Part shown: positions 15,208 through 62,293 of the stretch, piece by piece
Layout of the letters: the number at the start of each line of letters is the position of its first letter
Position numbering within the stretch: position 1 is the stretch's first letter
Sequence record: NC_054925.1
DNA length: 64,000 nt
Origin: Escherichia phage vB_EcoM_NBG2
Reading direction: 5' to 3' (one strand)
The notes under the pieces: generated by a model
The model's input: the letters and a program-made list of their open reading frames with translations, nothing else
Databases searched by the model: none
Told to the model about the DNA's origin: nothing
Made by a program: the position numbers and the translations under genes

Positions 15208-15413
15208 TTTGAATGCTCTATAATTAATTTTAAGGCTTCTTCACTGACAAAAATTTCGTCAGGACCTTTTTCTACAACCCAATCAACCCAATCAACCATA
15301 CGAAGCTGATTAGAAAAGAGCTCACATACGAGCTCCTTGTCATAATCTTTAAATAGCTGGTCAATACGCTTCTTGCGGGCTTTCTTGAGCTGGCGTTTAT
15401 TTAAACGAGCCAT
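15204..15413 (-). CDS. hypothetical protein
   Basis: 69 aa basic ORF. Confidence 0.45.
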   Translation of the reverse strand: MARLNKRQLKKARKKRIDQLFKDYDKELVCELFSNQLRMVDWVDWVVEKGPDEIFVSEEALKLIIEHSK

Positions 15414-15931
15414 TAATATCCTCTGTCTTGACGAGCGAAGTTTTCAGCATTTTTCAGATAATAAAGTTTAAAGATTTCCTCAGCTGACATTCCAAGAGCA
15501 ATGAATTTATTCATGAAAAAGTGAAATTGATCAATCAGTTCAAATTTAATTTCAAGCTGATCTTCGGGAGATAAATCTTGAATTTTCTTGGATTGCATTT
15601 CAGAATAACGTTTCTTCCAAGGTTTCCATACGGCAGAAGCTTCTTTTTCACCATTACTCATACCACCAAGAGAAGTATATAGCTCGCGAGTTTCATCTGC
15701 GATATAATCGTCTTGGTTTCGCAACCAAGCAAGAACTTCTCCTGCAGTTTCAAGTGAATCAGGATGACGATTTGTTTCTGGTTTATCATTAGCCAAACGA
15801 ATCTGTAAAGACCGCTGCATATCAAGCATAACCTGCAATGGGTCAATATTGTGCATAATATTCTCAGCATATGCACGAGTTGCTTTATCAACACCTTCGA
15901 TCAAATGAGCACATTCATTAAAGTGAGCCAT
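15413..15931 (-). CDS. 56: dCTP pyrophosphatase (gene 56, MazG-like)
   Basis: Track ORF trimmed to M32 (AAGGA SD), giving 172 aa, close to T4 gp56 size. Confidence 0.75.
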   Translation of the reverse strand: MAHFNECAHLIEGVDKATRAYAENIMHNIDPLQVMLDMQRSLQIRLANDKPETNRHPDSLETAGEVLAWLRNQDDYIADETRELYTSLGGMSNGEKEASAVWKPWKKRYSEMQSKKIQDLSPEDQLEIKFELIDQFHFFMNKFIALGMSAEEIFKLYYLKNAENFARQDRGY

Positions 15932-15961
15932 TATTTTTCCTTTCAATTCATGGATTAATAG

Positions 15962-15990
15962 ATTAATTATACAATAAATATATAAAGCAA
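15962..15990 (-). promoter_or_regulatory. MotA-dependent middle promoter candidate for gene 56
   Basis: TTGCTTTAT box and TATAAT-like -10 on minus strand. Confidence 0.35.
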
Positions 15991-16002
15991 TAAGGAGGAC
16001 AT

Positions 16003-16203
16003 ATGGTACAAAAATTAATGGCACTTGTTAATGCCATAAAAGGTAATAAGAAACGTATAGCTTTTACTATTTCTGCTATGATAGGAATTTTACTTTGGAA
16101 TTTTGTTCTATCACCTGTTGCAATTGCACATGGTATTAATATTCCAGTAGTTACTCTTGATACATTCGTAGATTTAGCATTTGCTTTAGTTGGGTTAATT
16201 TAA
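16003..16203 (+). CDS. small hydrophobic protein (two predicted TM segments), plus strand
   Basis: 66 aa; strong AAGGAGG SD 7 nt upstream of ATG; stop overlaps primase stop (TTAA); only credible plus-strand ORF in the window. Confidence 0.35.
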   Translation: MVQKLMALVNAIKGNKKRIAFTISAMIGILLWNFVLSPVAIAHGINIPVVTLDTFVDLAFALVGLI

Positions 16204-17228
16204 ATCTTGGCATATTTAGATAACCGCATTTTAGCCATCAACCCCTGGGCAATATTATTTTTCATATATTCCATAATTTGTTCAGGGGTTGCACCTTCCT
16301 TTCTAATCATATCATTAACATCTTTTGATTTCCAGGGAGATTTATCCCAAAACATAACCCTTTCTCCTGCATCAACTAATTTAGTCATTCGCTTAATAGT
16401 GTCAGGATGACGAGGTTCATTATCTAAAACCCACACACGTCTATCTTTAAATGGAACAACTTCTAGGTCTAATTGACCACCTGTAATAGCTATACCATTT
16501 TCAATAAAAAGTGAATCTATAGGTCCTTCTAGAACATATACATCACCATCTTTAACTCGTTCGACTCCATAGATTTTTGTTGCCTCAGGATAAGCTTTGA
16601 TGGTGATATATTTTTGAGGAGCATCTTTCTTTAATGCACGTCCTTGAAAAGACTCAGCTTTTCCATTAGCATTATAAATTGGAATAACAAGACGAGGCTC
16701 AGGTATTTCCTTTTTATATGTTCCTGGTGCTATACTATTAACTAATTTAGGCCATTCAGTTGTAAACCAAAGATATTTCCATTTATCCTTTGGAATACAA
16801 CGAGCTTTTACGTATTTTATAATTGGATGGTCTTCCGCCAATTTATCTAGTCTAATGCATGACGGAAGAGATTTAATTATTTTCTTCTCAGGTTGTTTAG
16901 GAAGTTCTTTAGGTTTTTCTACTGGACGACTTTTACCTTTTTCTTTTCTTATTTCAAAGATATACTCACGATATAAATCAGGTTCAAACTCCTTTAAATA
17001 TATTCCGATTGGTGCATGATAGTTACAGTTATAACAATGAATATTTCCTTCATTATTATCACCATAATACCATCCACGAGCTTTATTCTGGTCGGTTTTT
17101 GAATCTCCACAAACAGGGCATCTAAACCGCAATTTAAAAGTTGAACTATTATTTACTTGTGTGAATTTAGGTAAATGAGCTAATGCACGATACGCAAACT
17201 CATTATCAATCCAAGGTATTGATGACAT
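16200..17228 (-). CDS. 61: DNA primase (gene 61)
   Basis: 342 aa; zinc-ribbon CPVCGD...CYNC then TOPRIM-like core; size as T4 gp61. Confidence 0.85.
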   Translation of the reverse strand: MSSIPWIDNEFAYRALAHLPKFTQVNNSSTFKLRFRCPVCGDSKTDQNKARGWYYGDNNEGNIHCYNCNYHAPIGIYLKEFEPDLYREYIFEIRKEKGKSRPVEKPKELPKQPEKKIIKSLPSCIRLDKLAEDHPIIKYVKARCIPKDKWKYLWFTTEWPKLVNSIAPGTYKKEIPEPRLVIPIYNANGKAESFQGRALKKDAPQKYITIKAYPEATKIYGVERVKDGDVYVLEGPIDSLFIENGIAITGGQLDLEVVPFKDRRVWVLDNEPRHPDTIKRMTKLVDAGERVMFWDKSPWKSKDVNDMIRKEGATPEQIMEYMKNNIAQGLMAKMRLSKYAKI

Positions 17229-17230
17229 TT

Positions 17231-17395
17231 TTACTCTTCTTTTTCTTTAGATTCCTCTTTTTTCTTTTTAGGAATCTGCTCAGGACCTTTATTTACTACA
17301 GAGCCTGACGTTGTTCCAGTAGAGATATTTTCAGGATTACCACCTGAATCTCCAGCGACCATATCTTCTTTGATAAATTCTTTATATGTTTTCAT
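17231..17395 (-). CDS. small protein with capsid-targeting-sequence-like N-terminus
   Basis: 54 aa hand-translated ORF; starts MKTYKEFIKE, similar to the MKTYQEFI start of the internal-protein ORF at 60763-61236; coupled to flanking genes. Confidence 0.4.
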   Translation of the reverse strand: MKTYKEFIKEDMVAGDSGGNPENISTGTTSGSVVNKGPEQIPKKKKEESKEKEE

Positions 17396-17396
17396 A

Positions 17397-17753
17397 TTAA
17401 CCTCTATTCATAAAAGCATTAAAAATTTGGTCATCAATAGATGGTGCAGTAATATTTTCTGCATCATTTAGCAAATCATTAATTTCATCAGATAGCATAA
17501 CACATGTACCTTTATTTCCTGTAATTGTTACTGCGCAATTACGAACGTTTTCTTTATTAAATTTTAGGTTAATATTTTCGTAATGAAAATCCTTTAATGC
17601 TGAATATATTTTTAAAATAAAATTGTCTTTTACTACAATAAACCCAACCTCACTATTAAAACGTGGTTCATGGAAACTGTAATAAACCTTTTCATCTATA
17701 AAATCGTATGAAATTTTTTCCATTTTTAAATATGAAAATTCAGAACTATACAT
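17397..17753 (-). CDS. hypothetical protein
   Basis: 118 aa ORF. Confidence 0.5.
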   Translation of the reverse strand: MYSSEFSYLKMEKISYDFIDEKVYYSFHEPRFNSEVGFIVVKDNFILKIYSALKDFHYENINLKFNKENVRNCAVTITGNKGTCVMLSDEINDLLNDAENITAPSIDDQIFNAFMNRG

Positions 17754-17765
17754 ACTAACCTCTAA

Positions 17766-18059
17766 TTACTCACCTACCACTTCAGCGATGATATTTTTGT
17801 TATTAAAGTTTTTATCGCAATACAGAACATAATTATACTGCATTACACCACCAGACTTAAGCTGTTTTTGCACTTCGGCTTTCATTTCAGGACGATCGCG
17901 CTCAACGATATTCATAATATCTGCTTCAATTTGAGTTTCAACCTCAGTCTGATCAGCAGTCATAGACCATTCGCACAAATCTTTATCATAACCTGCCATA
18001 GCAGGCTGAGCAGCACAAGAAGATAAAGCAAAAATTGTAGCAAAGATAAATTTTTTCAT
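17766..18059 (-). CDS. sp: periplasmic protein, Spackle-like
   Basis: 97 aa; cleavable signal peptide (…AAQPAMA); size and position as T4 sp. Confidence 0.6.
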   Translation of the reverse strand: MKKFIFATIFALSSCAAQPAMAGYDKDLCEWSMTADQTEVETQIEADIMNIVERDRPEMKAEVQKQLKSGGVMQYNYVLYCDKNFNNKNIIAEVVGE

Positions 18060-18119
18060 GATAATCTCCTCAGCAGTTTATGTTTATATAGTATCTCAAT
18101 TTCCAACAAAAGTAAACAG

Positions 18120-18377
18120 TTATTTTAAAACTTCTGCGTAATCACATGTTACAAACTGTTTCTCTAGCTTAACGATCTTACGAAAATACCTTTTACACTG
18201 ACGAATCTGTCGCTTCGTAGGACGTACAGCAAACTTAATAAATTCAACTCGACCAAATGGAGGACTTTCTTCTGCTGGAATATCTAACACCAATTCCCAC
18301 GTATCTGAAATAAGTGCTTTGAATTGCGTATTTTTCCTGACGTTATACGGAGTAGGTTTAAATAAAACAATATGCAT
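18120..18377 (-). CDS. hypothetical protein
   Basis: Trimmed to M15 immediately after dmd stop; 85 aa. Confidence 0.45.
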   Translation of the reverse strand: MHIVLFKPTPYNVRKNTQFKALISDTWELVLDIPAEESPPFGRVEFIKFAVRPTKRQIRQCKRYFRKIVKLEKQFVTCDYAEVLK

Positions 18378-18378
18378 A

Positions 18379-18561
18379 TTATCCTCGGCAATCCACTTCA
18401 CACACTTTCTTGTCATCAATGAAAGCTTTAACTAATGCTTTATTAACTTCGGCATATTGAGTAGTAGCCCATTGAACGTCATCTTTCATCATTGTAGTTT
18501 CTTTAGTAAACATGCTTTCATTCTTAAACCACCCCATAAAAACTACCTTTACCAATTCCAT
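18379..18561 (-). CDS. dmd: Dmd-like small protein (anti-RnlA/LsoA antitoxin analog)
   Basis: 60 aa; position immediately downstream of gene 41 as in T4; GAGGAG SD. Confidence 0.55.
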   Translation of the reverse strand: MELVKVVFMGWFKNESMFTKETTMMKDDVQWATTQYAEVNKALVKAFIDDKKVCEVDCRG

Positions 18562-18590
18562 AACAATCTCCTCATTTAACCAACAAGACT

Positions 18591-18620
18591 ACTATACCAT
18601 AGTCTTGTCAGCTTGTAAAC
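18591..18620 (-). promoter_or_regulatory. early promoter upstream of dmd
   Basis: GTTTAC, 18 nt, TGGTATAGT. Confidence 0.55.
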
Positions 18621-20047
18621 TAAAATTTTAATTCATTTGCCAAAGCATCTAACTGAGCTCGAGTGGATTCATTTCTTTGATAGCGATTCTGCTCAGCCTG
18701 AATCTGTTGTGAACCTGCTACTTCGTTCACTTCAGTTGGAGTAGAATCTTGTTCAATTTCTACCCATTTTTGATTTCCTTTTTGAACACCCATCAAAAAC
18801 TTATTCCATTTGTTCTTATCACCATATCGTGATTTGATTTGCTTAATGAGTTGTTGTTCAGCAGCTGCTAGCTCCTCGGTTTCAATGACCGCAAGCATAA
18901 AATCGGCTGTTGCTGGAAGACCAGCAGATTCTGCAATATCGCTCATGTTAACATCAGAAGAATCCCAAGCCTGTTTACCAACCTGTGCTGCAGTCCAAAG
19001 AACAGTTTCGGTTTCAACAGCAAGAGCACGCAATTCCTCTGCAATAGCTTTAACAGTTGTGTAACTATTTTCTGAATAAACTCTAATGCGGCAAGATTTA
19101 CAAATACCTAGATAGTCGACAATAATGATTGTTGGAACAAAATTCTTCTTGAGCTTTAATTCGTTTAAAAGCGATCGAAATGTATTAGCATCTGCTCCAC
19201 CAGTAGGATACTGTTTAACGATTAAACGACCGAGAGTAGATTTCTCACGCCATTTTTCCATTTTTCCTTTATACTCAGCGTAAGAAATATGCCCATCATC
19301 AATGTCATCAAGAGAAACATCAAGCATATTAGCATCAATACGTTTAGCACAGACTTCTTCTGCCATTTCCATGGAAATGTAAAGAACATTGTGTCCGAGC
19401 TGCAAATAATCTGCTGCCAATGAACACAATCCTAATGACTTACCGACGTTAACGCCAGCCATTAAAACGTTCAGTGTTCCAGTCTCAGCTCCGCCTTTAG
19501 TAATTTTGTTTAGAATTCTGAGTTTAAATGGAACCTTACGAGCTTTATTCATATAAGATAGCCAACGTGCTTCGTAGTCATCCATCCAATCATGACCAAC
19601 GTAACTATCAAATGAAATAGATAATGCCTGGCGCATGATGTCAGGAATAGCACCAACATCTGGCATTTTCTTATTTCGTTTTTCCGGAGGAAGCTCAGCA
19701 TTAGTTTGAATTTCGATTATTTTAGACGTAGCATTAAACATCGCCCTTTGCTGAACATATTTTTCTGTTTCTTTTATTAACCAACTGTGGTCTTCCGGAG
19801 AATCAGCCAGTTTTGAAATAAGTGTTTTTACACCAGAATATTCTGTTTCAGTAAATGAACTATTTTCTAATGCAACATTTAACGCATTAATAGATGGAAC
19901 GCTATGATACTCATTAACATGAGATTTAATTAATTTGAATGTATTTTTAGCTGGACCACTTTCAAAATATTCTGAATCCATATATGGCCAAACTTTTGAA
20001 AAATAAGCTTGATCAAATATGAGATGAGAAAGAATAATTTCTACCAC
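18620..20047 (-). CDS. 41: replicative DNA helicase (gene 41, DnaB-like)
   Basis: 475 aa; Walker A GVNVGKS; size as T4 gp41. Confidence 0.9.
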   Translation of the reverse strand: MVEIILSHLIFDQAYFSKVWPYMDSEYFESGPAKNTFKLIKSHVNEYHSVPSINALNVALENSSFTETEYSGVKTLISKLADSPEDHSWLIKETEKYVQQRAMFNATSKIIEIQTNAELPPEKRNKKMPDVGAIPDIMRQALSISFDSYVGHDWMDDYEARWLSYMNKARKVPFKLRILNKITKGGAETGTLNVLMAGVNVGKSLGLCSLAADYLQLGHNVLYISMEMAEEVCAKRIDANMLDVSLDDIDDGHISYAEYKGKMEKWREKSTLGRLIVKQYPTGGADANTFRSLLNELKLKKNFVPTIIIVDYLGICKSCRIRVYSENSYTTVKAIAEELRALAVETETVLWTAAQVGKQAWDSSDVNMSDIAESAGLPATADFMLAVIETEELAAAEQQLIKQIKSRYGDKNKWNKFLMGVQKGNQKWVEIEQDSTPTEVNEVAGSQQIQAEQNRYQRNESTRAQLDALANELKF

Positions 20048-60762: not shown

Positions 60763-61236
60763 TTATTTGAACGATTTAACGTACTGAATAGAACCTTTAC
60801 TATTTACAAAGGCAATTTTACCATTTTTATTATACATTGTAGCAGTACGTTGATAGCCATAAGTTTGTTTACCAGATTGATAACCAACTAATGCAAAATT
60901 ATCTTCACCCATTTTATTCTGTTTAGCGCGAATGCGTTCATGACCATGTGCCATAAGAACCTTAGCATCACCAGTTGCAATGGATCGACGAGTTTTTTCA
61001 TCTTCAACTGTATTAACAAAGTCGTCAAATGAATCAAATTTAGCATGAGATTTATTATACAGTTTTCCATCTACTGCATAATTATATCCCTGTACATCCA
61101 TCTCAACTTCTGTACCATCATCCAATACAGCAGTAATTTTTTGACCTTTTTTAAATTTCAAAAGATCAGTAAAAGATTCAGCGATAATTTGAGAATTAAT
61201 AGCTGCTTCAGTGATAAATTCTTGATATGTTTTCAT
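60763..61236 (-). CDS. internal protein with capsid targeting sequence
   Basis: 157 aa; N-terminal MKTYQEFITEA matches the T4 IP targeting sequence as recalled; immediately upstream of gene e. Confidence 0.65.
   Translation of the reverse strand: MKTYQEFITEAAINSQIIAESFTDLLKFKKGQKITAVLDDGTEVEMDVQGYNYAVDGKLYNKSHAKFDSFDDFVNTVEDEKTRRSIATGDAKVLMAHGHERIRAKQNKMGEDNFALVGYQSGKQTYGYQRTATMYNKNGKIAFVNSKGSIQYVKSFK

Positions 61237-61324: not shown

Positions 61325-62293
<969 letters not shown>

Follow-up and report, generated by a model that had tools for sequence, protein, structure and literature searches.

Gene 61.1 of a T4-type phage: a small gene beside the primase gene, homologous to the maturation segment of gp23, starting like a capsid-targeting sequence and possibly acting in the prohead

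The window examined here, a 64,000-nucleotide stretch of Escherichia phage vB_EcoM_NBG2 (NC_054925.1) taken as a whole, contains an ATG-started open reading frame (ORF) of 54 amino acids plus stop at 17231-17395 on the minus strand, identified from the ORF listing and encoding MKTYKEFIKEDMVAGDSGGNPENISTGTTSGSVVNKGPEQIPKKKKEESKEKEE. One intergenic base separates it from the stop of the upstream gene and two bases from the ATG of the DNA primase gene 61, which lies directly downstream (16200-17228, minus strand), bearing out the tight tiling that the initial annotation had described. A GAGG Shine-Dalgarno sequence, read from the sequence, lies 5 nt upstream of the ATG (17401-17404, minus strand), inside the end of gene 61.2, and the purine-rich region for ribosome binding at gene 61 lies within the last codons of the ORF, the junction reading AAAGAAAAAGAAGAGTAAAAATG. 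A 901-base query around the ORF shows 100% identity to the Tequatrovirus VEc20 (MN022785.1), an Escherichia phage of the T2/T4 group, and 95-99% identity to about 500 further T-even genomes. The gene order in VEc20 is 41 (helicase), dmd, 61.4, sp, 61.2, the present ORF and 61 (primase), and T4 shows the same order.

The ORF had been described as missing from the annotation, which does not hold for the public records: the VEc20 record lists it as vec20_034, "hypothetical protein", and the T4 counterpart is gene 61.1 (NP_049649, 54 aa). The window protein is 96% identical (52/54) to T4 gp61.1, MKTFKEFIKEDMVAGDSGGNPENISIGTTSGAVVNKGPEQIPKKKKEESKEKEE, with Tyr at position 4 where T4 has Phe. Profile matches are obtained to phrog_1823, the short form of the family (E 1.8e-33 across residues 1-54), and to phrog_2086, the long form (E 3.5e-16 across residues 8-53). 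The full-length profile match and the kept position upstream of gene 61 place the protein in the gp61.1 family. The gene is therefore the already known and annotated, uncharacterised T4-family 61.1, called "hypothetical" in more than 500 phage genomes; in the searchable literature gp61.1 appears in gene tables only, and no functional study was found there.

Gene 61.2 (17397-17753, minus strand; 118 aa) encodes a short form of the anti-DarT factor AdfA, Pfam PF23813. Residues 22-118 match positions 113-211 of the 211-position profile, which is its C-terminal half, and T4 61.2 has 208 aa; judged from this alignment, AdfA may be truncated or differently started in the window phage. On the far side of the primase gene, T4 (15606-18963) carries dam and segF between 61 and 56, whereas the window (15413-17228) has neither there; between its primase and dCTPase genes it holds only a 66-aa opposite-strand ORF at 16003-16203 (vec20_032). 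Across 17 sampled lineages 61.1 lies between the helicase gene 41 and gene 61, usually directly upstream of 61, and the primase gene is its neighbour in nearly all relatives. A 61.1-type gene is also found beside the primase gene in an Otagovirus and in a phiM7-type phage, and in some phages other ORFs stand between 61.1 and gene 61.

Comparison with orthologues from three other genera (JS10, Mineola and F48) gives pN/pS values of 0.12-0.26, and within the core pS is 0.76-0.94, with synonymous sites near saturation and non-synonymous divergence of only 0.10-0.20. Such values identify the ORF as a real coding gene. A tblastn search finds the protein in 1462 phage records, ranging from Escherichia to Klebsiella, Aeromonas, Acinetobacter and Vibrio phages, and this spread together with the low pN/pS indicates selection on the peptide sequence. 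The sequence comparisons thus show 61.1 to be real, conserved and under purifying selection. No RNA family is found by Rfam in 16900-17800 at E up to 1, and a search of all six-frame segments of the window with the family HMM reveals no further paralogue. The conservation weighs against the notion that 61.1 is a leader ORF by which the poorly expressed primase gene is regulated or translationally coupled, with a peptide of no importance. The spacing suits that notion, with 2 nt between the 61.1 stop and the ATG of gene 61 and purine-rich tail codons doubling as the ribosome-binding region; the core amino acids, however, are conserved across genera despite saturated synonymous change, conservation reaches the Vibrio and Acinetobacter phages, and the intervening ORFs of some phages separate 61.1 from gene 61. 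We consider a mere leader function very improbable.

Codons 1-10 (17366-17395, minus strand) specify MKTYKEFIKE, a decapeptide resembling the capsid-targeting sequence (CTS) of the internal proteins, with a predicted site for the prohead protease gp21, I-K-E, at residues 8-10. Eight of its ten residues are identical to MKTYQEFITE, the start of the ORF at 60763-61236 (minus strand), an internal virion protein gene (phrog_3155, E 6e-102; Pfam DUF7412) in which the CTS is followed by A. The same number is shared with MKTYQEFIAE, the start of T4 IPII and IPIII. Each of the 1132 window frames that start with ATG and encode at least 20 aa was scored over its first 10 residues against MKTYQEFIAE: the ORF at 60763-61236 reaches 47, 61.1 reaches 42 and the next best frame 20; 61.1 is so clear an outlier that the likeness is not a matter of chance. 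Both the resemblance to the internal-protein ORF, noticed at the outset, and the I-x-E site claimed with it, present as I8-K9-E10, stand up to this comparison.

The first ten residues of the IPIII CTS are reported to be sufficient to package foreign proteins, its mutagenesis assigns targeting mainly to residues 4 and 7 and processing to residues 8 and 10, and gp21 cleaves after L/I-x-E (PMC9026906, a review of Black's work). The window protein is identical to IPII and IPIII at all four mapped positions, namely at Y4 and F7, the targeting residues, and at I8 and E10, and it has an L/I-x-E motif, I8-K9-E10, where the targeting peptide would end. The P1' residue is Asp in the window protein and Ala in gp23, IPII and IPIII.

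At the DNA level, the 30 nt coding for the decapeptide are identical at 27 positions to 61207-61236 (minus strand), with the same codon for all eight shared residues, and at 25 of 30 positions to both ipII and ipIII of T4. The 27/30 agreement and the shared codons hint at a DNA-level exchange of a CTS cassette. Such an exchange would also fit the leader-ORF proposal weighed above, under which the CTS-like start would be a by-product of recombination with internal-protein genes.

The segment that follows the decapeptide (codons 11-42; 17270-17365, minus strand) resembles the N-terminus of mature gp23*, corresponding to gp23 66 to about 97, that is, the N-fist and the start of the N-arm. BLASTP against T4 gp23 aligns residues 2-38 on 57-93 with 41% identity (pairwise E 2e-8), placing E10 of gp61.1 on gp23 E65, after which gp21 cuts gp23 (LTE, then AEIGGD). 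A family HMM of 71 sequences, drawn from the 17 phage lineages and from a profile search of a 1.84-billion-protein set, scores 50.2 bits against T4 gp23 (residues 61-101). Of 12 diverse gp23 N-terminal fragments tested, the 9 that include the segment are matched as well, and gp24 is left unmatched. An hhalign comparison of the 61.1 family with gp23 N-termini returns a probability of 97.5% and E 6e-12, with residues 8-47 on gp23 63-102. In a blind profile search of 177,635 distinct PDB sequences, T4 gp23 entries are the only ones below E 0.01 (E 3.8e-10, residues 59-101). A narrow 7-sequence profile run against 1.84 billion representatives retrieves, at E up to 0.001, 49 members of the family but no gp23, which only the broader family profile reaches. 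An artefact of the Gly/Ser/Thr-rich composition is rejected, since the HMMER bias terms are small, 0.1-1.2 bits against scores of 40-56 bits, and the pattern GD...IA.G..SG...GP fixes the register.

Taken together, these alignments show residues 8-47 to be homologous, in register, to gp23 about 59-102, including the gp21 site and the N-fist. The HK97-fold capsid body (A, P and I domains; PF07068) has no counterpart in the protein, which has 54 aa and no Pfam match. Pfam assigns no family to window gp61.1 at E up to 0.1, and at E up to 10 it gives no match for T4 gp61.1, the GEC-3S short form or three long forms. Earlier annotators left hints, with "gp23-like" in phage Moon and "major capsid domain-containing protein" in some records, the latter name not being reproduced by Pfam. 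As far as the searchable literature shows, the CTS-like start and the homology to the gp23 segment are undescribed, apart from these stray annotation notes. As a separate observation, Y4, F7, I8 and E10 of the CTS line up with F59, F62, L63 and E65 of T4 gp23, ahead of the gp23 cleavage site, and the capsid-targeting sequence itself may be derived from the end of the gp23 propeptide.

Two structural papers (PMC9546572; PMC9958956) describe gp23* 66-105 in the unexpanded T4 head as disordered, inward-pointing and probably touching the scaffolding core, and place the head-length mutations A66D, A94V and G97S within it. After cleavage and expansion, according to the same papers, the segment moves to the outside as an extended N-arm and an N-fist of roughly 25 residues, which is bound to four adjacent subunits and makes up part of the Soc site. 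The gp23 segment thus faces both core and protease, and it is exactly this core- and protease-presented segment that gp61.1 copies.

The family has a modular anatomy. Short forms, of about 50-62 aa (about 55), consist of a short N-peptide, often starting MK(T/S)(F/Y)xE(F/V), the core and a Lys-rich tail, and they occur in Tequatro-, Dhaka-, Jiaoda-, Marfa-, Krisch-, Biquarta- and Tulanevirus. Long forms, of about 123-184 aa (about 155), place an N-domain of about 105 aa ahead of the same core and tail and have no N-terminal CTS; their carriers are Mosig-/RB69-type, Moon-, Teguna-, Slopek-, Pseudoteven- and Schizotequatrovirus (KVP40), Acinetobacter phages and Muldoon. In the window the tail is the Lys/Glu-rich KKKKEESKEKEE (codons 43-54; 17234-17269, minus strand), delimited from the family alignment, and in other genera it is strongly basic (K/R). 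Directly ahead of the core, nearly all of about 70 diverse members carry [LIVMF]-x-E, for example I-K-E, L-F-E, L-S-E, V-N-E, M-L-E or F-V-E, although short and long forms otherwise have no related sequence upstream of it. In gp23 homologues the same hydrophobic-x-Glu motif occupies the same place. Because the motif is kept while its flanks vary, it is most simply explained as a conserved protease site. A cleavage-type motif, an N-fist-like core and a charged tail are common to all Straboviridae members and make up the sole content of the protein here.

In AlphaFold models the N-domain of the long form is helical, at moderate confidence (pLDDT 75-89, residues about 10-70), and the gp23-like core is predicted to be disordered by itself (pLDDT below 50). 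Foldseek of the N-domain against the PDB returns nothing, and a BFVD search returns uncharacterised phage proteins only, some of them much longer, so that neither search supplies a function for it; the N-domain is seen at 19-40% identity inside A0A411BBR2 (672 aa), A0A1B1IT15 (913 aa), A0A7S5R3P1 (387 aa) and A0A6J7WVK5 (396 aa). It also occurs in Otagovirus, phiM7 and Melnitz, mostly beside the primase gene, with a C-terminus that holds no recognisable gp23-like core. A split gene, with the N-domain as a separate upstream ORF in short-form phages, was considered and ruled out, the N-domain being absent from the window; it was likewise not found at the T4, JS10, Mineola, F48, GEC-3S, Asfd_1 and Aes012 loci. 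In RB69 (NC_004928, 17458-17783) the long-form gene is split into ORF032c and gp61.1, which match as two pieces, and this may reflect a frameshift or a sequencing error. Some metagenomic relatives (P0030, P0044, P0051, P0038, P0039 and P0053) show a CTS-like K-x-F-x-E-F after the basic tail, and in some of them an additional domain of about 100 aa, beginning with a motif of this kind (e.g. KKKVKRKMNEVSNFKQFVEGLE), follows as a fusion. They look as though a gene of the 61.1 type had been joined to one for a CTS-bearing protein.

This anatomy bears on the possibility that gp61.1 is a replication-linked accessory whose ancestral role, for primase and helicase or for DNA, would reside in the long-form N-domain and the basic tail, the gp23-like stretch serving as a capsid-derived linker without a capsid role and the T4-type short forms being reduced versions. 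Its placement between 41 and 61 in the 17 sampled lineages, and beside the primase gene in Otagovirus and the phiM7-type phage, would agree with this, as would an N-domain older than the gp23-like core, since it occurs without a clear core in Otagovirus, phiM7 and Melnitz; the K/R-rich tail could, to judge from its composition, bind nucleic acid. Adjacency is weak evidence, however, because gene order is generally conserved in the T4 replication module. The short forms, in the window and at seven further loci, have lost the N-domain wholly and yet retain the gp23-like core under purifying selection, marking the core as the indispensable part. Knock-downs of 61.1 and 61, both neutral in the same screen, add no support, and a replication role appears unlikely.

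In a T4 dual-omics time course the 61.1 mRNA is classed "early" and the protein is not quantified, while ipI, ipII, ipIII, e and the head gene 40 combine "early RNA" with "late protein" (PMC9697503 supplements). The timing of 61.1 is therefore compatible with incorporation into heads, since ipI-III and 40 share its early RNA class and yet accumulate late. Late-promoter matches to TATAAATA number four in the window and none lies near 61.1; upstream of 61.1 on its own strand, none occurs for about 38 kb. One of them, at 61846-61853 (minus strand), is upstream of e and of the internal-protein gene at 60763-61236. A pattern search finds a candidate middle promoter at 17394-17420 (minus strand), made up of a MotA-box-like AATGCTTTTA (17420-17411), a 12-nt spacer and TAATAT (17399-17394), judged by the T4 middle-promoter consensus. 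This candidate overlaps the start of 61.1, so transcripts from it would begin inside 61.1 and serve gene 61 only.

When T4 61.1 is knocked down by CRISPRi-ART, fitness is not affected (score -0.84, p 0.93, "Not Fit"), and knock-down of gene 61 is likewise neutral in the same screen (PMC11879866 supplement). The 13 gp21 sites mapped in nine T4 head proteins do not include gp61.1 (PMC5694885), and the portions of T4-head mass-spectrometry text searched do not mention it; a product of about 4.6 kDa could easily be missed in gel-slice proteomics. In the text passages retrieved from the capsid cryo-EM reports, the terms "unidentified" and "extra density" were not found.

The early RNA class and the missing late promoter would also suit a cytoplasmic mimic or decoy, in which an early, unpackaged gp61.1 competes with nascent gp23 for a partner that recognises this segment. 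Such a partner might be the scaffold protein gp22, the protease gp21, EF-Tu, the folding route through gp31 and GroEL, or an immune sensor with which the host detects capsid protein, and the outcome would be a tuning of head assembly or a blunting of capsid-triggered defence. The cluster is rich in counter-defence genes, with dmd and with 61.2 as the anti-DarT factor AdfA, and dispensability on a laboratory host is usual for accessory counter-defence genes. Major capsid proteins are known to trigger immunity, as in the Gol/Lit system, which acts via EF-Tu on the first quarter of gp23 (PMC3014915), and in the further case of Avs7 (PMC13581612). A copied activating epitope, however, would be expected to trigger a sensor rather than silence it, and a decoy leaves both the conserved hydrophobic-x-Glu motif and the full T-even CTS unexplained. 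The 29-residue Gol determinant, moreover, is another stretch of gp23, presumably lying just downstream of the region copied in 61.1, and the link to Gol/Lit is down-weighted because that determinant is in a different part of gp23. A decoy role is on balance rather unlikely.

Our preferred reading, held tentatively and drawn from sequence comparison, is that gp61.1 may be a peptide targeted to the prohead core and processed by gp21. It is ranked first because two independent sequence features point to it, namely the match to the CTS and the in-register homology to gp23. The copied gp23 segment would comprise the end of the propeptide, the gp21 site, the N-fist and the start of the N-arm, opening in T-even-type phages with a decapeptide that corresponds to the CTS of the internal proteins. 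The protein would first join the gp22 scaffolding core of the assembling prohead through its CTS-like N-terminus and its gp23-like segment, which is core-facing in gp23 itself. Cleavage by gp21 would follow after Glu10 (I-K-E, then D), setting free a 44-residue peptide (DMVAGD...KEKEE) that would remain in the head or dock on the shell in the manner of the gp23 N-fist. The predicted disorder of the core, resembling that of the gp23* N-terminus before expansion, agrees with processing in the prohead. Counting against it are the lack of a late promoter, absence from proteomics, the P1' Asp, the neutral knock-down, a candidate middle promoter that bypasses the 61.1 ATG, the location in the replication cluster and the long forms without a CTS.

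The initial annotation had proposed a small packaged protein injected with the DNA, as the anti-restriction internal proteins are. Its packaging part gains from the identity at the CTS-critical positions and from the homology to the gp23 cleavage segment; its anti-restriction or injected-effector part does not. No evidence for an anti-restriction role was found, and the mature part is conserved across T4-like phages and structural in origin. Injected effectors are expected to be variable and lineage-specific, so the conservation of gp61.1 leaves that role unsupported: in place of a variable, lineage-specific mature domain, the protein has one conserved from T4 to KVP40 and the Acinetobacter phages. 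By phrog match and PDB-wide profile search, this mature part is homologous to gp23 and to no internal protein. An improbable further reading is that the peptide, once it has entered by way of its CTS and been cleaved by gp21, acts in trans as a piece of the capsid lattice, either as a free N-fist peptide filling donor-less N-fist sites, which could lie beside gp24 pentamers or the portal, or as a competitor of gp23 N-termini on the scaffold, which would tune head length or stability.

If correct, processing of gp61.1 in the prohead would have several implications. It would supply a tenth candidate beyond the supposedly closed list of nine gp21 substrates in textbook T4 maturation, a CTS-bearing protein cut by gp21 that in its mature part consists of a piece of the capsid protein, and a function for a small gene conserved across the sampled T4-like phages. 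It would furnish a natural tool for studying how the N-terminus of gp23 makes contact with the scaffold and determines the length of the head, and it would point to the origin of the capsid-targeting sequence, which is widely used for loading foreign proteins into T4 heads. Should a decoy role prove correct instead, this would exemplify a phage that carries a gene for part of its own capsid protein and uses the product early, as a regulator or against host defence.

Among known systems, gp61.1 resembles T4 IPI, IPII, IPIII and Alt in its N-terminal decapeptide, MKT(Y/F)xEFIxE, with I-x-E at the same position. In T4 it shares the early RNA class of ipI-III, and its first 30 nt are nearly identical to those of the internal-protein gene of the window. 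Unlike the internal proteins, which are hypervariable basic effectors, it has as its mature part a conserved 44-residue copy of an element of the capsid shell. It differs from them further in its P1' Asp, in lacking a late promoter, in its replication-cluster locus and in having long-form relatives that carry no N-terminal CTS. With gp23 about 57-102 it is homologous in register (E10 = E65), sharing the hydrophobic-x-Glu motif and being predicted to be disordered by itself, as that gp23 segment is in unexpanded heads. Unlike gp23 it has no HK97-fold body, a Lys/Glu or Lys/Arg tail replacing the capsid domains, and it is encoded and transcribed among early replication genes. Like gp24, the vertex protein and full-length gp23 paralogue that gp21 cuts near the N-terminus, it is a product of gene 23 duplication; gp24, unlike gp61.1, is a complete capsid subunit without an N-fist. 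The long-form gp61.1 proteins (phrog_2086; RB69/Mosigvirus, Moonvirus, KVP40, RB16 and Acinetobacter phages) share motif, core, basic tail and position upstream of the primase gene and differ in carrying a helical, conserved N-domain of about 105 aa that neither the window nor T4 has.
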